Assembly (NCBI GenBank): GCA_016219355.1
Contig: JACRNF010000019.1
Span: 1 to 59,822, forward strand
Direction of reading: 5' to 3'
From: Chlamydiota bacterium
GTDB taxonomy: Bacteria > Chlamydiota > Chlamydiia > Chlamydiales > SM23-39
DNA: 59,822 bases
Numbering within the stretch: position 1 is the stretch's first letter; each line of letters begins with the position of its first letter. The notes beneath the pieces were generated by a model, which was not told the origin of the DNA, searched no databases, and saw only the letters and a program-made list of their open reading frames with translations. This document shows positions 1,444 through 20,400 of the stretch, piece by piece. Made by a program: the position numbers and the translations under genes.

Positions 1444-2230
1444 ATGTCTAACGAATTTATTTTAAGAAGCTTTGCCACGCATGACGGTTCTTTTCATGCC
1501 GATGAAGTCACTTCGTGCTCTTTATTGCTTTTGTATGACCGTATTGATCGAGATAAAATTTATCGTACAAGAGATCCTGCTATATTGGAGAGATGCGAAT
1601 ACGTTTGCGATGTTGGGGGTATTTACGATCCTAAAAAAAAGAGGTTTGACCATCATCAAAAAGATTATACCGGAGATTTCAGCAGCGCCGGCATGGTGTT
1701 ACTTTATTTAAAATCGATAGGTATTATCGATAGCGCGCTGCATGATTATTTTTACCAAACCTTGGTCAAACGAGGCATTTCAAGAAGCTTTAGATTTTGT
1801 AGTGAGCCATTTAGATAGAATGCAAAAAAGATTTTTTTATACTGCCAGGTGCAAAGAAAAAGTAAGAGTTCATATGGGATCTAAAGATAAATATATTATT
1901 TTTGATGAGTCCTTTCCCTGGATGGAGAGTTTTTTTGAGCTTGGGGGCAAATTCCATCCGGCATTGTTTATAATTATGCCGACTGAAAAACATTGGAAAT
2001 TAAGGGGCATTCCTCCAGATAGTGATAATAAAATGCAGGTTAGGCTTCCATTACCTTTAGAATGGGCCGGCCTGCATGATGATGATCTAAAGAAAGTATG
2101 CAATCTTGATGGGGCTGTTTTTTGTCATAAAGGAAGGTTTATTTCTATTTGGGAGACCAAAGAAGATGCTATCAGAGCTTTAAAATTCGTATTGCAAAAA
2201 GCAGGTATAAAACATGAAGACAATTTTTGA
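1444..2230 (+). pseudogene. MYG1/UPF0160-family metal-dependent hydrolase, split by a frame change near 1757-1770
   Basis: ORF 1444..1818 has the family N-terminus (HDGSFHADE...FDHHQ). ORF 1742..2230, in the +1 frame, continues with the family C-terminal half (KPW...RLPLPLEWAGL...FCHKGRFI). The central DAxDNG-type segment is missing. Confidence 0.75.
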
Positions 2231-5127: not shown

Positions 5128-6147
5128 CTAAAAGTCCCAACCTTCAATTGCTGATGATTGATTATAAGAGGTCACTGTGGCTTCAAAGAAATTAGCTTTG
5201 ACATCTCCTTTGCCTTCAGTATCGGCAATCTTTTCCAAATGTTTATACGGGTGTTCCATATGACTCGGAAAAAGTGGCTTGAATTTGATTTTTTCCAATA
5301 ACTTGTTGGCAAGGTATTTGGTATATTTTTCTGTAGCGTCATTAGACATGCCTAAAATATTGTTGCCGATTATATGATTTGTCCATTGGATTTCTTGATT
5401 GACCGCTTCCATGAACATTTCATTGATCCAAGGAGTGTCGTTCTCGTCGATTATCTCGGGAATGATCTTTCTAAAAATGGAAACATGCAAAAGTTCATCT
5501 CGGTTGATATATCTTATAATGTCGGAGGTCCCATGCATTTTATGCCTGGAGGCTAGATTATAAAAGAAAACAAAGCCGTTATAAAAATAGAGCCCTTCTA
5601 AAAGATAATTGGCAATCAGCACTCTTTTAAAGTTGGCGGTGGAAGGGGAATCTAAAAATTGTTGAAAAATTTCAGCTATGTATTTGTTGCGAGTAAAAAG
5701 AACTTCGTCATCTTTCCAAAAGTCATAGATGTAGTTCCTGGTCTCTTTAGGAAGAATGGTCTCTATTATATATTGATAAGACTGTGAATGAATAGCCTCC
5801 TGATAGGTCTGAATGGCCAAAATGAGGTTTATTTCAGGTGCCGTAATATAATCTGATATATGAGGAACGTTGTTGGTTTGGACGCTATCTAAAAAGATTA
5901 AAAAACTTAAAATGCCATCAAAAGCTTTTTTCTCATCTGTTGTCAGGTTCTTATAATCGTTGATATCAGATGTTAGATCTACTTTTTCAGGGATCCAAAA
6001 ATTTTCCATCATGGACCGATAAAGTTTATTGGCCCAGTTATATTTGACATTGTTTAAATTGAAGATATTGGTAGTGTTGCCTTGTATAACTTTGCGCTCT
6101 TGGATCGAGTCATTTCCAAACGGATTAAATAGTTTTTTTGGTTTCAT
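5128..6147 (-). CDS. nrdB: ribonucleoside-diphosphate reductase beta subunit (class Ia-type, Tyr radical site present)
   Basis: 339 aa with FLDSVQ (Asp ligand), EAIHSQSY (Glu-x-x-His-x-x-x-Tyr) and later EGxxF/ExxH-type motifs typical of R2. Confidence 0.95.
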   Translation of the reverse strand: MKPKKLFNPFGNDSIQERKVIQGNTTNIFNLNNVKYNWANKLYRSMMENFWIPEKVDLTSDINDYKNLTTDEKKAFDGILSFLIFLDSVQTNNVPHISDYITAPEINLILAIQTYQEAIHSQSYQYIIETILPKETRNYIYDFWKDDEVLFTRNKYIAEIFQQFLDSPSTANFKRVLIANYLLEGLYFYNGFVFFYNLASRHKMHGTSDIIRYINRDELLHVSIFRKIIPEIIDENDTPWINEMFMEAVNQEIQWTNHIIGNNILGMSNDATEKYTKYLANKLLEKIKFKPLFPSHMEHPYKHLEKIADTEGKGDVKANFFEATVTSYNQSSAIEGWDF

Positions 6148-6156
6148 TTTTTCTCC

Positions 6157-8253
6157 TTAACTGCTGCAAGATATGCATTCTTCTTTATCTAAAGAAGAGC
6201 CGTCTTTCTGGATTGTTCTTATGTAATATATGGTTTTAATCTTTTTTTCCCATGCGTCAAGCAAGGTTTCAAAGATGTATTTGGCATTAATGTGAGGTAA
6301 ATTAAGATTAAATATTAGTTCATAGCTGATGCCGGTATCGATCCATTTTTGGATTTCTCCAATAACGGCATTAATTGCTTTAGAGTCCATGTGCTTATAT
6401 TCTTTGTAATACCAAAAACGATCTTTGATGAAAGGGGGACATACGGGTACTGATCCTTTTGAGTTCTTATCCATGTAAAATTTAGAAAAAATGGGAAGGA
6501 CCGATGGAGTGCAGCCTTGGACTAAAGCCGAAGAAGTATTGGGGGCGATGGCTAAAATTTGAGAGTTTCTGATCCCATGCTTATCAATTTTATCTTGCAG
6601 CTCTAACCATTTTTTAGGATTTTGAGAAAAAGTGGCAAAATTATTTATTCTTTCTTTATTGTCCCATTTAGAATTTTTAAAAGCTTTGAAGGGGCCTCTT
6701 TTTTTGGATAATTCGATGGAAGAGTCAATGGAGTAAAAAGCGATATTTTCAAATAGTATTCCAACTTCTTTTTGAGCCTGTTCATATTTGAGGTTGTTTT
6801 TGGCTAAATAATCGGCAAGTCCCATAGCTCCAAGGCCAATAGTGCGGTATTTATTGTTGTGAAACGAGCTTTGCTGGTCGGGAGTAGTTGTTAGATCGAT
6901 TGCATTATCTAAGATCCGAAATGGGATATACCCTTCATGAGAATTGGGATTGACTGAGTTGGCGGTGTCTTTAAAGAAAATATAGGGCATTCCGGTTTCT
7001 AACTGTGTTTTCATGATCTGTTTGAAAAGTTCTTTAGAGCTAACTTTTTTTACTAATTTAAGCTTATTATCTTGATAGGCGAGAATACATTTTTGGTAGC
7101 TCTCTTCAAATTTTTTTGAATAACATTCGGCTAGATCAATTTTCAATTTGGTTTTAACTTCATAGGGATCGAAGAGGAAAAAATCTTTATTTTCTTTGAC
7201 ACAGTTCATAAAAAGATCGGGGATGACAACTTGCGGGAATATATCATACGCTTTTCTTCTTTGGTCCCCATTTTCCGTTTGGAGCTCTAAAAATTCTTCA
7301 AAATCCAAATGCCAAACATCTAATGAAACGGTGACGGCTCCGGCCCTTTTGCCCATTTGATTTACTGCTACGGCGGTATCATTGATGATTTTGATCCAGG
7401 GGATGACTCCGCCTGAAGCATTAGGATGTTTTTTTACCCAAGATCCTTTGGCTCTAATTTTAGATAAATTGATCCCGACTCCGCCGCCATTTTTGGAAAT
7501 TTTGGCAATTTTGGTCACGGTATCAAATATGGAATTGATATCATCGTCAATAGCTATGATAAAACAAGAAGATAAATTACCACTCGGTCTTCTTAAGTTT
7601 AATAAAATAGGTGTGGCCAAAGAGATTTTTCTCGAAGCGATTAAATTGTAAAATTTTTTGGCAAAGATGAGTCTTTCATTTTTTTCTTCAACGCTGGCCA
7701 AAAGAAGAGCTATGGTCAAATAAGCTTCTTGGGGTAGTTCATCTTGTATAAGATAGCGGGTGCTAAGAAGTACAATCCCGGCATAATCATAGTCCAAATC
7801 TTTGCGGTTATCAATCCAGCTTCCTGCTTCTTCTAGCTCTACTTTTGAATAGAGTTTTAAAATTTTAGGGTCGTATTTTTTTTGTTTGACCATACTTTGG
7901 ATATGTTTTAAATAGTCTTCGTATAGGTAGCCTCGGTTTCTTTGAGTGTCTTTCCACATGTTCATAGTGAGTAACCTTCCGGCGACTATTCTCCAATCTG
8001 GCTCTTTTACCGAGGTCAAAGAAAGGGCGTGATAGATCAAATTTTCTTGAATTTGAGTGGTTTTGATTTTATCATGAAAAATTATGTCTATGGAGGCTTC
8101 TAATTTTAAAGGATTTATTTCTAATCCTTGTGTAGCCCAGGCAATAACCTTTTTGACCTTCTCAATGTCAAAATTAGCTATGGTTCCGTCTCGTTTGATA
8201 ACCGATTTTAAAAGATCTTTATGTATAGGAGGATTTTGAGTTTTAATCGACAT
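6157..8253 (-). CDS. nrdA: ribonucleoside-diphosphate reductase alpha subunit; ORF intact but apparently missing the catalytic SNLCxEI loop
   Basis: 698 aa with an ATP-cone-like N-terminus (VIKRDGT..F) and LSSCFII (the C225 region). The sequence reads FFKDTANSVNPNSHEGYIP then directly FRILDNAIDL...RTIGLGAMGLADYL. The C-terminus is Cys-rich (CISCSS). Confidence 0.85.
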   Translation of the reverse strand: MSIKTQNPPIHKDLLKSVIKRDGTIANFDIEKVKKVIAWATQGLEINPLKLEASIDIIFHDKIKTTQIQENLIYHALSLTSVKEPDWRIVAGRLLTMNMWKDTQRNRGYLYEDYLKHIQSMVKQKKYDPKILKLYSKVELEEAGSWIDNRKDLDYDYAGIVLLSTRYLIQDELPQEAYLTIALLLASVEEKNERLIFAKKFYNLIASRKISLATPILLNLRRPSGNLSSCFIIAIDDDINSIFDTVTKIAKISKNGGGVGINLSKIRAKGSWVKKHPNASGGVIPWIKIINDTAVAVNQMGKRAGAVTVSLDVWHLDFEEFLELQTENGDQRRKAYDIFPQVVIPDLFMNCVKENKDFFLFDPYEVKTKLKIDLAECYSKKFEESYQKCILAYQDNKLKLVKKVSSKELFKQIMKTQLETGMPYIFFKDTANSVNPNSHEGYIPFRILDNAIDLTTTPDQQSSFHNNKYRTIGLGAMGLADYLAKNNLKYEQAQKEVGILFENIAFYSIDSSIELSKKRGPFKAFKNSKWDNKERINNFATFSQNPKKWLELQDKIDKHGIRNSQILAIAPNTSSALVQGCTPSVLPIFSKFYMDKNSKGSVPVCPPFIKDRFWYYKEYKHMDSKAINAVIGEIQKWIDTGISYELIFNLNLPHINAKYIFETLLDAWEKKIKTIYYIRTIQKDGSSLDKEECISCSS

Positions 8254-11867: not shown

Positions 11868-12581
11868 ATGACAAAACTTACCAAAAGACGAAAGAAAATT
11901 GTTGAAGTGATTAAAGACTTTACTAAAGTCCGAACAATTGAAGAAGCAATTGATTTATTAAAAAATTGCCCCGCTTTAAAATTTGACCAATCGGTTGAAA
12001 TTGCGGTTAAACTTGGTGTCGATCCTAAAAGATCCGATCAACAAGTTCGAGGAACTGTAACGCTTCCTCATGGTACAGGTAAATCGGTAACTTTAGTTGT
12101 TTTTGCAAAAGGGGATAAAATTAAAGAGGCAAAAGATGCAGGCGCCGACTATGTTGGCAATGAAGATTTATTGCAAAAGATAAATGAAGGATGGACCGAT
12201 TTTAGCGCAGTAATTTCAACTCCTGATATGATGAGAGAAGTTGGAAAGCTAGGAAAAATTTTAGGTCCAAGAGGCTTGATGCCTACTCCTAAAGCCGGCA
12301 CGGTTACTAATGATATTGCAACTGCGGTCAAAGAAGCGAAAGCGGGTAAAATTGAATTTAAGATTGATAAGGCAGCCGGTGTAAATAATTCAGTTGGTAA
12401 ACTATAATTTAAAAAAGAAGATTTAATTGAGAATATTAAAGTTTTGATGTCGGCGATTTCTAAAGCTAAACCGACATCGGCAAAAGGGATCTATATTGAA
12501 TCATTATATATTTCTTCAACTATGGGGCCCGGCATACAAATAGATTTACAATCAGTGCTTGCAACAGCAGCAGCAGCATAA
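11868..12581 (+). pseudogene. rplA: 50S ribosomal protein L1 interrupted by an in-frame TAA at 12405..12407
   Basis: ORF 11868..12407 is the L1 N-terminal 179 aa. The same frame continues after the TAA as FKKEDLIENIKVLMSAISKAKPTSAKGIYIESLYISSTMGPGIQIDL...AAAA* (stop at 12579..12581), which is the conserved L1 C-terminus. Confidence 0.85.
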
Positions 12582-13647: not shown

Positions 13648-16600
13648 ATGCTGAAAAAACCGCCTAAAAGGGTGAGTTTTCGTGATAGGGAAGAGATAAT
13701 CGATCTTCCGAACCTCATTGAGATTCAAATCAAATCCTATAATAAGTTTTTACAAGCTGATCTACTTCCACATGAAAGAACAACAGAAGGTTTAGAAGAA
13801 GTTTTCAGAGAAATTTTTCCTATCAAATCCTATGATGAGAAAACTGTTTTAGAGTATTTAGCTTATAGTTTGGGAGTTCCAAAATATAATCCGGAAGAAT
13901 GTATTCGTAGGGGGATTACTTATAATGTAACCTTAAAAGTTAAGTTTAGACTAATCGATGAAACCGGTATCAAAGAAGAAGAAGTCTATATGGGCACTTT
14001 ACCTATAATGACTGAGAATGGGACTTTTGTTATCAATGGGGCCGAAAGGGTTATTGTATCTCAGTTACATAGATCTCCCGGTATATCTTTTGAAAAAGAA
14101 AGACATCCTAAAGGAACCATTTTATATTCATTCAGAATGATCCCTTATAGAGGCAGCTGGCTTGAGGCATCATTTGACAATAACGATTTAATTTACATTT
14201 ATATTGATAGAAAAAAACGAAGAAAAAAAATCTTAGCAACTTCATTTATTCGAACTCTTGGTTATTCTACAGATGCCGATATTATTGAAGAATTTTTTGA
14301 GACCAGAAGAGTCAAAATTAAAAATGAGTCAGATTTTGTCAAGTTGGTTGGTAAAATTTTGGCCGAAGATGTAGTTGATGAAAAAACCGGTTTAGTGTTT
14401 GGTAAAGCTGCCGAAAAACTAACTACCGCCATGTTAAAGAGAATGGTCGATGAAGGGGTGGCCAACATCCGCATAGCGGAAAATGTTGATGAAACTCATC
14501 CTATCATCAAAATGCTTGAGAAAGACACTACAGATTCATATGAATCTGCTCTTAAAGAATTTTATAGAAAGCTAAGACCTGGCGAACCTGCGACATTATC
14601 TAATGCTAGATCGGCTATCATGAGACTCTTTTTTGATCCCAAACGTTATAATTTGGGACGAGTTGGAAGGTACAAATTGAATCGTAAGCTTGGTCTCTCC
14701 ATCAGTGATGAAGCATTAGAAGTTGTAACTTTAAAAAAAGAAGATGTCATTGCATCGATCAAATATCTAATGCGTCTTAGATCCGGTGATGAAGGGGTAT
14801 CGGTTGATGATATCGATCACTTAGGCAATAGAAGGGTCAGATCTGTTGGTGAATTGATTCAAAATCAATGCCGGATCGGTCTTGCCAGAATGGAAAAATT
14901 AGTCAAAGAAAGAATGAATCTTTTTGATTTTTCATCTGATACCATGACTCCGGGAAAGATTGTTTCTGCTAAAGGGCTTGCCGGTGTATTAAAGGATTTC
15001 TTTGGAAGATCTCAGTTATCTCAATTTATGGACCAAACGAATCCAATATCAGAACTGACGCATAAACGAAGGCTATCATGCCTCGGGCCAGGCGGTCTTA
15101 ATCGAGAAAGAGCCGGCTTTGAAGTACGTGACGTTCATACTTCTCACTATGGAAGGATTTGTCCGATTGAAACTCCGGAAGGTCAAAACATTGGTTTGAT
15201 CACTTCATTATCATCTTATGGTAAAATCAACGAATTTGGTTTTATTGAAACTCCTTATCGTATTGTAAAAGATGGAATAGTAACAGATCAAATCGAATAC
15301 ATGACAGCTGACATGGAAGAAAACTGCGTTATAGCGCAGGCTTCTGCAGAGCTGGATGAATTTAACATGTTCAAAGATCCAATTTGTTGGGCTAGACATA
15401 AAGGGGATTCATTAGAAATCGATACTAAAAAAGTTACCCATATGGACGTTTCTCCAAAACAGCTAGTTTCGATTGTTGCGGGACTCATTCCTTTTCTAGA
15501 GCATGATGATGCTAACCGGGCACTCATGGGTTCTAACATGCAAAGACAAGCGGTCCCTCTATTACAATCGGAGAGCCCTCTTGTTGGAACAGGTCTAGAA
15601 GAGCGCTCTGCAAGAGACTCCGGCTCTGTTGTAATCGTAGAAGAAGATGGAATTGTTGAATATGTCGATGGTTTTAAAATTATTATCGCGCCTAAAAATA
15701 ATCCAGTGGATAAAAAGACCTATTTATTGAAAAAATTCATGAGGTCCAATTCTGGTTCTTGCATTAATCAAACTCCTATTTGTTGTGTTAATGACAAAGT
15801 GAAAGCCGGGGATGTAATTGCTGACGGCCCTGCAACCGAAAATGGGGAGCTGGCCCTTGGCAAAAACGTTTTAGTGGCCTTTATGCCATGGTGTGGTTAT
15901 AACTATGAAGATGCGATCATTATTTCCGAAAGATTGATCTGCAAAGATACATACACTTCCATTTATTTGGAAGAATTTGAGCTAACAGCCAGGGAAACAA
16001 AGCTTGGAAAAGAAGAAATTACCAAAGATATTCCTAATGTTTCCGAGGAAGCTTTAAAAGATCTAAAAGAAGATGGGATTATTAGAATTGGCGCCGAGGT
16101 CAAGCCCGGCGATATTCTTGTAGGGAAGATTACACCCAAATCGGAAACCGAGCTCTCTCCTGAAGAAAGGCTTCTTAGAGCTATATTTGGAGAAAAAGCT
16201 GCCGATGTTAAAGATGCATCTTTGATCGTGCCTCCCGGCGTGTATGGCTTTGTCATGGATGTGAAGGTATTTTCAATCAAGGATCGTTTGTCAAAAACCG
16301 ATGATCAGCTTGTTGAAGAGGCTTCACGATTGAAAGATGTCCATCAAGAGTTTAAGACAAAAGAATCTGAGCTGCAACTAGAGTTTCATGAAAAGCTGGG
16401 CGCTTTACTTTTAAATGAAGCTTGCCCATCTGCTATTATGCATAGAAAAACAGGAGAAGTGATAATTGATAAAGATGCAGTTATTACTCAAGAGATGTTA
16501 GAAACTCTAGAGGATGAAAAGTTAGAAGATCTGATGATGGAAGATAATGCACTATTTTCCGAGCTTAAGAAAGTATTGAGAGAATATGACCTTGCCAAAC

Positions 16601-17434: not shown

Positions 17435-20400
17435 ATGCAGGACAGTGAGGATTTCAAACGTTCTCAATTTGATAAGTTGACTATTAAAATTGCATCGGAT
17501 GATGTGATCAGAAATAGTTGGTCTCGAGGGGAAATTAAAAAACCTGAGACTATCAACTATCGAACATTTAAGCCGGAAAAGGGTGGCCTTTTTTGCGAAA
17601 AGATATTTGGCCCTATGCGCGATTGGGAATGTGCCTGTGGAAAATACAAGAAGATCAAGCATAAAGGGATTGTATGCGATCGATGCGGAGTGGAAGTTAC
17701 CATTTCCAAAGTTAGACGTGAGCGTATGGCCCATATTGATCTAGCTGTTCCGGTGGTTCATATTTGGTTTTTCAAAACTATGCCTTCTCGCATTGGCAAT
17801 ATTTTAGGTATGTCGATTACCGATTTGGAAAGAGTGATCTATTATGAAGAATTTGTAGTTACCGATCCAGGCAATACCGAGCTACAGAAAAAACAGCTTT
17901 TAAATGACAATGAATATCGAGAAGCCCAAGAAAAATGGGGTTTGGATGGTTTTAAGGCAAAAATGGGTGGAGAAGCGATCATCGACTTATTAAAAACGGA
18001 AGATTTAGCATCCCTTGTTTTAGATTTAAAAGAAAAGCTTAGAAAGACCAAATCAATGCAAGCCAGAATGAAGATAGCTAAACGGCTAAAGATTGTCGAA
18101 GGGCTAGCCTCTTCTCCAAATACACCTCATTGGATGGTGCTATCATGCGTTCCGGTAATTCCTCCCGATCTAAGGCCGCTTGTGCCTTTAGATGGCGGAA
18201 GGTTTGCCACATCTGATTTAAATGATTTATATCGCAGGGTAATCAACAGAAATAATCGTCTTAAATCGATTTTAAAACTTAAAACTCCTGATGTCATTAT
18301 CCGAAATGAAAAGAGAATGCTGCAAGAGGCGGTCGATGCTCTTTTTGACAATGGTCGCCATGGCCATCCGGTAATGGGAGCGGGCAATAGGCCTCTAAAG
18401 GCTCTTTCGGAGATGTTGAAAGGAAAACAAGGTAGATTTAGACAAAATTTACTTGGTAAAAGGGTTGATTATTCAGGCCGATCTGTAATCGTGATTGGGC
18501 CAGAACTGAAATTTAATCAATGCGGTCTTCCAAAAGAGATGGCATTGGAGCTTTTTGAGCCGTTTATTGTAAAAAGGCTTAAAGATCTTGGTATTGTTTA
18601 TACCATTAGATCGGCTAAAAAAATGATTCAGAAACAAGCCCCTGAAGTATGGGATGTTTTGGATGAAATTATTAAAGGGCATCCGGTCTTATTGAACCGA
18701 GCTCCAACTCTTCATAGATTGGGTATTCAAGCTTTTGAACCGGTCCTTATCGAAGGAAAAGCTATCAGGATCCATCCTCTGGTGACAACTGCATTTAACG
18801 CCGACTTTGACGGCGACCAGATGGCTGTCCATATTCCACTTTCTATTGAAGCTCAGCTTGAGGCCAAGTTGTTAATGATGGCGCCGGATAATATCTTTTT
18901 GCCCTCATCTGGTAAGCCGGTCACTATACCGACGCAAGATATGATTTTGGGTCTTTACTATTTGATGCTCGATCCTATTTATACTGCGGAAGAGCAAGGT
19001 AGAAAAACTAAAATTTTTAGAAATACAGAAGAAGTGCTTTTGGCGCTTGGAGCTAGCGTAAGTCATAATAGGTTTGATCCCAAAAAACAGGGTAGGGCTC
19101 AAATGGATGATACCGGCAGAGGTCTTCGCCTGCATGAAAAGATCAAAGTTAAAATTGATGTCGGCATTATTGAGACCACTCCGGGTAGGGTAATTTTTAA
19201 TACAATTGTTCCAGCGCATCTTGGTTTTCAAAATTATGCGCTTCGTAAGAAAAAACTCTCCGAGCTTGTATTAGAGTGTTATAAAAAGGTTGGTCTAGAA
19301 GCTACTGTTAAGTTTTTGGACAACATGAAAAACTTAGGGTTTGCTGAAGCTACTAAAGCCTCTCTTTCCATGGGAGTTATTGATGTTCGGGTTCCCCAAA
19401 ATAAAAAGAAAGTTATCGATGAAGCCCACAAGAAAGTTGAAAAAGTTAAAAAACAATATGAAGATGGTATTATTACCGATGGGGAAAAGCATTCCAAGAT
19501 TATTAGTATATGGACTGAAGTTACCGACTTTTTATCTGAAGAGTTGTTCAAGTTAGTTGCAGAAATTAGAGAAGGGGAGCTTAATCCTTTATATTTAATG
19601 ATGGATTCTGGCGCAAGAGGTAACAAGTCCCAGGTTAAACAGCTTGGAGCATTGAGAGGTCTTATGGCAAAACCCTCCGGCGAAATTATTGAATCTCCAA
19701 TCACTTCTAATTTCCGTGAAGGGTTGACGGTTTTGGAGTATTTCATATCAACTCACGGAGCGAGAAAAGGTCTTGCCGATACTGCTTTAAAAACTGCTGA
19801 CTCCGGTTATTTGACAAGAAGGCTTGTTGACGTTGCGCAAGATTTAATTATCACAGAGCTAGATTGTGGTACGTTAAATGGAGTTGAAGTATCTGGTATC
19901 AAGCAAGGGCAAGAAGAGCTTCTTCCTTTGAAAGATAGAATTTTTGGCAGAACGGTCTGCGATGATATTCTTTTACCAGGGGACTCAACTCAATATTTAG
20001 CCAAATCGCAAGATATTTTAACCTTCCAAAAAGCGGAAGCTATTGATGATGCTGGTATAGAGTCTGTAAAATTAAGATCACCTCTTACTTGTGAAAGTAC
20101 CCGAGGTATTTGCGCAAAATGTTATGGACTCAACTTGGCGACCGGTAATCTGGTAGGCCTTGGCGAAGCTATAGGTATTATTGCAGCGCAGTCTATCGGG
20201 GAACCGGGAACTCAGCTTACGATGAGGACTTTCCATATCGGGGGTATTGCCTCTGCAGGAGCTACGCCTCAACTGATAGCAGATCACTCTGGAATTTTAA
20301 TTTACAAAGATTTGCGTACTGTAAAAAATGATGAAGGGCAATGGCTTACACTCAACAAAAACGGAACTCTTCATATTGTAAGAGATGAAGGAAGATCGAT

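Follow-up and report, generated by a model that had tools for sequence, protein, structure and literature searches.

The window, by which we mean the whole stretch of DNA that was analysed (59,822 nt), is contig C20, the longest of the 100 contigs in a genome of 1.55 Mb, with an N50 of 23 kb, a GC content of 35% and a completeness of 85%. Adjacent nrdA and nrdB genes in this window encode the two subunits of a class I ribonucleotide reductase (RNR). Both genes are listed in Table 1 together with the sites at which the contig departs from independently assembled sequence.

Table 1. Coordinates of the RNR genes and of the sites in the window that are contradicted by contigs of public sequencing runs (X1, X2, X3).
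Feature	Position	Strand	Evidence
nrdB, RNR small subunit, 339 aa, intact	5128..6147	minus	PF00268, 262.8 bits, profile 2-280 of 281
nrdA, class I RNR alpha subunit, 698 aa	6157..8253	minus	ORF open throughout, Pfam, phmmer, alignment
Junction in nrdA, 43 codons absent (finger loop NLCME and HTCNL second-Cys strand)	6920..6921	minus	Comparison with run contigs
Second missing stretch, ~110 nt, frame-shifting, in the MYG1/UPF0160 gene (parts 1444-1770 and 1769-2230)	1768..1769	plus	X1, X2 and X3 contigs
In-frame TAA in rplA (L1)	12405..12407	plus	X1 contig has C at 12406, giving TCA (Ser) and restoring L1

The genome contains two N-runs and is therefore a scaffolded short-read metagenome-assembled genome (MAG), with low coverage. 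These N-runs, the only ones in the MAG, lie at C37:8421-8460 (40 nt) and C46:4087-4134 (48 nt) and mark a scaffolding step with estimated gap sizes. The sequencing runs that contain window sequence are groundwater metagenomes, and the source organism is an environmental chlamydia from groundwater.

The nrdA frame contains no stop in its 698 codons and reads ...NSHEGYIP, followed by FRILDNAIDLTT. An ATP-cone (PF03477, residues 17-101, 45.3 bits) and an all-alpha domain (PF00317, residues 154-225, 57.4 bits) were assigned to the product. The barrel domain PF02867, a profile of 523 positions, was incomplete in the contig: its match was split into profile positions 1-206 and 257-523, and the 50 positions 207-256 were absent. 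The best match among the PDB chains was 7agj_A (E = 9.7e-144), and in this phmmer comparison the alignment broke at residue 444/445. NrdA up to residue 444 (...HEGYIP) aligned to 7agj_A as far as SSNLCHEI, the SSNLCHEI...VCNL segment was skipped, and from residue 445 (FRILDN...) the alignment resumed at 7agj_A residue 545 (VRMLDN...).

Compared to its ten closest relatives (738-741 aa, ~70% identity), which come from Parachlamydiales and Anoxychlamydiales MAGs, nrdA lacks exactly 43 residues, or 129 nt, between P444 and F445. All ten carry xGNLCMESFSNV..EIHTCNLVSLNLANIE... at the gap site, and their consensus for the absent segment is xGNLCMESFSNVxANxEIHTCNLVSLNLANIEDxELxxxCxxS. In alignments with solved class I and class II RNRs, this segment matches the SNLCxE finger loop and the xCNL strand; following the literature, we take these to hold the thiyl-radical Cys and its accompanying Asn and Glu (N437, C439 and E441 in E. 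coli), and the second redox Cys (C462, which pairs with C225 in the E. coli active site). P444 is encoded by 6922-6924 and F445 by 6919-6921, and the breakpoint relative to the read-derived contigs falls between 6920 and 6921. The junction thus fuses t with tt into the Phe codon of F445; in the run contigs, the upstream codon at this point is Ser (tCA) and the downstream one is Ile (Att).

A previous reading made from the sequence only had reported that nrdA reads through in frame without the catalytic Cys loop. The open frame, the split PF02867 match, the phmmer break and the alignment to the ten relatives all agree with this, and the alignment to PF02867 and NrdA homologues that it had proposed showed the gap, with the finger-loop Cys absent from the contig. 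Its estimate of a loss of about 50 residues and 150 nt was right as to the loss but too large, the size being 43 residues and 129 nt. Likewise, the junction that it had placed at 6921/6922 was located to within one base, but the run contigs put it at 6920|6921. As it had also stated, no NLC-type motif occurs anywhere else in the 698-aa product, and nrdB is intact.

The remaining functional residues were retained. C230, presumably the equivalent of E. coli C225, was present and invariant across the aligned relatives, as were Y676 and Y677 of the radical-transfer dyad (KTIYYIRT) and C693 and C696 of the C-terminal shuttle Cys pair (EECISCSS). NrdB has a Tyr at the radical position, in QEAIHSQSY, four residues past a His. 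Among the near homologues of NrdA, P0012-P0014, P0040, P0042 and P0087 carry the intein domains PF14890 and PF14528.

The rest of the MAG was searched for a second RNR, for the missing loop and for nucleotide transporters, the first and last of which the sequence-only reading had suggested looking for. Compensation by a second RNR was rejected, with no other PF02867 gene and no class III (PF13597) gene found in the MAG. A loop encoded elsewhere was rejected as well: the loop peptide in tblastn and the two overhang 30-mers described below, searched for as exact strings, had no other match in the 1.55-Mb MAG. Nucleotide transporter genes of the NTT/TLC type (PF03219, 550-721 bits) were present in three full-length copies, at C6:4266-5735, C88:5043-6500 and C50:1943-3424. 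NTT transporters are expected in a chlamydia.

Logan contigs of public runs, and not raw reads, served as independent data. Such contigs drop rare variants and can therefore prove that an intact allele is present, not that a deletion allele is absent. X1 and X2 are two samples of the same groundwater study, to which X5 also belongs, and X3 is from another study. The k-mer depth was ~3-6 and the Logan contigs were 0.2-1.4 kb long. Of the words of another 10-kb stretch, 72% were found in X1 and 41% in X2. A further run search found no deeper source run. At 18677-19343 of the window the summed depth of X1 contigs was ~147, compared to 3-10 in other bins; this jump likely reflects conserved rpoC-region sequence common to abundant other organisms.

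The run contigs were compared with window positions 6300-7600. Between 6223/6300 and 6920 (698 nt), an X1 contig of 790 nt showed 100% identity to the window, after which it continued for 92 nt that are absent from the window. From the other side, an X2 contig of 324 nt was 100% identical over 6921-7134 (214 nt) and carried 110 nt before 6921 that are likewise absent. In the gene frame, the printed 30-nt end of the X2 overhang reads ANSVNPNSHEGYIP-SGNLCMESFS (context ...NSHEGYIP-SGNLCMESFS), and that of the X1 overhang reads DLKDVCESS-IRILDNAIDLTTTPD (context DLKDVCESS-IRILDNAIDL). These two ends are exactly both ends of the segment present in all relatives. The corresponding loop anchor sequences, in gene sense, are CAGGCAACCTTTGCATGGAGTCTTTTAGCA and ATGATCTTAAAGATGTGTGCGAAAGCTCCA. 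Furthermore, one contig of the X3 strain, which is ~93% identical, spans the site and has 131 nt in place of window positions 6921-6925 (5 nt), a surplus of 126 nt (42 codons).

The finger loop N-x-C-x-E, though absent from the contig, is therefore counted as present in the organism, since N-L-C-M-E was read directly in X2, contiguous with window-identical sequence. The overhangs of 92 and 110 nt add up to 202 nt against the 129 nt expected, and together they should therefore cover the whole segment. The letters actually read from the contigs amount to 60 of the 129 missing nt, at the two ends of the stretch. The HTCNL Cys falls within the missing stretch, at a position that the 92-nt X1 and 110-nt X2 overhangs should span, going by their length. 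The incomplete PF02867 barrel is ascribed to the assembly, the absent part being present in X1, X2 and X3 contigs. As a trait of the organism, a class I RNR lacking its catalytic Cys is not borne out, since the X1 and X2 contigs, whose flanks are 100% identical to the window, contain the loop. The sequence-only reading had named, as the outcome that would refute its biological explanations, reads showing about 150 nt missing from the assembly; the result came close to this, contigs rather than raw reads from two runs having the loop.

Further searches addressed the same site. When the runs were compared with the homologous gene of genome G017 at 80% likeness, only the flanks aligned, with a spacing that agrees with the geometry of the gap; on the homologous locus of G023, at the same likeness, nothing aligned. 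The 30-mer encoding GNLCMESFS had no exact match in JGI metagenome contigs, and a protein search with residues 395-640 as the query yielded no gene call among the short Logan contigs. No contig crossing 6920|6921 as written in the window was found in X1, X2, X3, X4 or X5, and X4 and X5 had no contig at the gap site. When the indexed runs were searched for a 60-nt stretch with the junction at its centre, none was found to contain it, a weak result in that only 2 words were sampled.

The nrdA gap is not the only lesion in this contig. The Pfam profile of the MYG1/UPF0160 gene is interrupted at 1768|1769, where three relatives have 36 more codons; therefore ~110 nt are missing there, consistent with the frame shift. 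Contigs from X1, X2 and X3 match the window from 1769 on and extend before that position by 98, 67 and 119 letters that the window lacks, all ending in one shared 30-mer, ATTGAATATGAGGCTTCTTTTGAAGAATAT. X3 contigs coming from the other side of 1768|1769 continue into GGGGTTGATGCCCATGATACCGGAA (G-V-D-A-H-D-T-G). The split MYG1/UPF0160 gene is an assembly error, not a pseudogene. In addition, a consensus error is the probable cause of the in-frame stop in rplA.

Over 20 kb, the window differed from the X1 and X2 contigs at five places, which included the two losses of 110-129 nt and the rplA stop. The other two differences, both in the first 20 kb, were an Asn/Ser missense change in rpoB at 15698 and a synonymous change in rpoC at 17785. 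Three of the five differences inactivate a gene; therefore they do not resemble natural polymorphism but are like consensus errors in thin data. Both missing stretches adjoin breaks in the X1 and X2 contigs, which indicates locally poor coverage.

We conclude that the 129-nt gap in nrdA very probably arose as a local error of assembly or consensus in a scaffolded MAG of low coverage. This was judged from independent run contigs and not from raw reads, the consensus of the window being unsupported and another sequence being supported. Because contigs of the same study with window-identical flanks contain the loop, the gap is most likely an assembly error rather than biology, and the missing catalytic loop is most likely no real biological feature. 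The real nrdA would most likely be an ordinary, intact class Ia-type alpha subunit of ~741 aa with an N-L-C-x-E finger loop, paired with an intact Tyr-radical NrdB.

With very few reads over the stretch, dead-end branches were probably clipped, and the flanks would then have been joined via a chimeric or singleton read, or contig ends abutted in scaffolding. Repeat-mediated collapse was rejected as the cause, with no repeat or usable microhomology at the breakpoints. ATGG occurs near both ends of the lost stretch, but recombination through it would delete 130 nt, not 129. Thus, among the three explanations offered by the sequence-only reading, assembly error held up, with same-study contigs that have the loop, while the word "collapse" did not, in view of the missing flanking repeat. 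Local assembly errors without support from any read are documented in MAG scaffolds, for example 13 in a 1.13-Mb genome (PMC7111523).

Some observations speak against an assembly error. The loss is in frame, which a random artefact would achieve with a chance of 1 in 3, and it is bounded by conserved blocks. The breakpoints have no repeat or microhomology to account for a collapse, and de Bruijn assemblers normally require at least one read for a junction. RNR loss is plausible in the group, with 10 of the 40 relatives searched having no match to NrdA and three NTT transporters in this genome. These points would suit a real and very recent in-frame deletion allele of 129 nt that segregates beside the intact allele, the MAG assembler having taken the deletion path; cells with this allele would have a dead RNR and depend on imported nucleotides. 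Several relatives of the same family without any RNR match would fit it too, as would the read support that assemblers usually want for a junction, and Logan contigs cannot show the absence of a rare variant. We nevertheless consider such an allele improbable, since the junction was seen in no contig or indexed run, and the intact allele was found in both runs that contain the strain. The ~110-nt deletion and the rplA stop of the same contig, both contradicted by the runs, indicate an error process over variation tolerated by selection, and neither the remainder of nrdA nor nrdB shows decay. Still less probable is that the deletion is a genuine allele of a lineage caught discarding its only RNR in favour of host deoxynucleotides imported via NTT, as some RNR-less relatives seem to have done.

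A fixed, evolved non-catalytic NrdA derivative, for instance a paralogue with a regulatory or scaffolding role in a lineage that has given up ribonucleotide reduction, has next to no probability. In its favour, the gene as assembled is full length except for the loop and is the sole RNR alpha gene in the MAG. Against this, the loop occurs in contigs with 100% identical flanks, in the ~93% identical X3 strain and in all relatives at ~70-76% identity, and the other catalytic and radical-transfer residues as well as NrdB are conserved, with no relaxed selection seen. A fixed non-catalytic RNR is effectively refuted. The intein domains of the near homologues mentioned above would favour a loop supplied from elsewhere, by a split gene, by trans-splicing or with the gap as the scar of an imprecise intein or intron loss at the catalytic site. 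This is just as remote: the tblastn and 30-mer searches of the MAG gave no other match, and the run contigs show the loop joined to both flanks with no intervening element.

The reading of the gap as an assembly error has practical consequences. The 698-aa product is a cluster representative in public protein collections, and metabolic reconstructions of environmental chlamydiae would treat it as a catalytically dead RNR. The MYG1 break and the rplA stop resemble pseudogenes, yet the sequencing runs contradict both. Apparent pseudogenes or marks of genome decay in this MAG are not to be trusted without read-level checks. A deletion allele, if real, would capture an intracellular bacterium in the course of losing its RNR, which would be of modest interest.

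The present case is similar to those described by Chen, Anantharaman, Shaiber, Eren and Banfield (2020, Genome Res 30:315; PMC7111523), in which read-unsupported consensus corrupts genes entering public databases. This MAG, too, is scaffolded with N-runs and has several errors per contig. In contrast to those errors, which were found by raw-read support, the comparison here was made with independent run contigs, and we infer the assembler step.

The enzyme itself resembles class Ia NrdA/R1, as represented by E. coli R1 (PDB 2r1r), human RRM1 (3hnc) and the best PDB match 7agj_A, in its domains: a single ATP-cone, an all-alpha domain and a ten-stranded barrel. Further shared features are C230, the YY dyad, the Cys pair at the C-terminus and a Tyr-radical NrdB encoded next to it, and the SNLCxE segment, in the run contigs and in all relatives, aligns with that of solved structures, as does the xCNL segment of the relatives. 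Unlike class Ia NrdA, the contig lacks barrel profile positions 207-256, with the finger-loop Asn, Cys and Glu and the second redox Cys, a difference that is ascribed to assembly.

The canonical chlamydial class Ic RNR has the same role, and its host is also a chlamydia. Class Ic enzymes have a long NrdA of ~1050 aa with several ATP-cones, and the R2c of Chlamydia trachomatis contains Phe. In contrast, the NrdA described here contains just one ATP-cone and would measure ~741 aa if intact, and its R2 has a Tyr at the radical position. Most other relatives of the same order have a gene of ~1000-1100 aa that is only 32-36% identical to this NrdA. The nrdAB pair (5128-8253) is common to only three of the 40 relatives searched (G017, G010 and G023, 68-79% identity, loci L004-L014). 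In the genome search, the nrdA homologue of G010 (L005, G010:C95:4743-6743) fell within an open frame of 1043 aa that one in-frame TAA interrupts; either a further MAG error or a gene that is fused or extended may lie behind this. Among sequences from outside the chlamydiae, cyanobacterial NrdA proteins came closest, with 52-57% identity. The distribution of nrdAB suggests replacement by horizontal transfer. By these sequence comparisons, the interest of the nrdAB pair would seem to lie in its not being the canonical long chlamydial NrdA and in its being closest, beyond the chlamydiae, to cyanobacterial enzymes.
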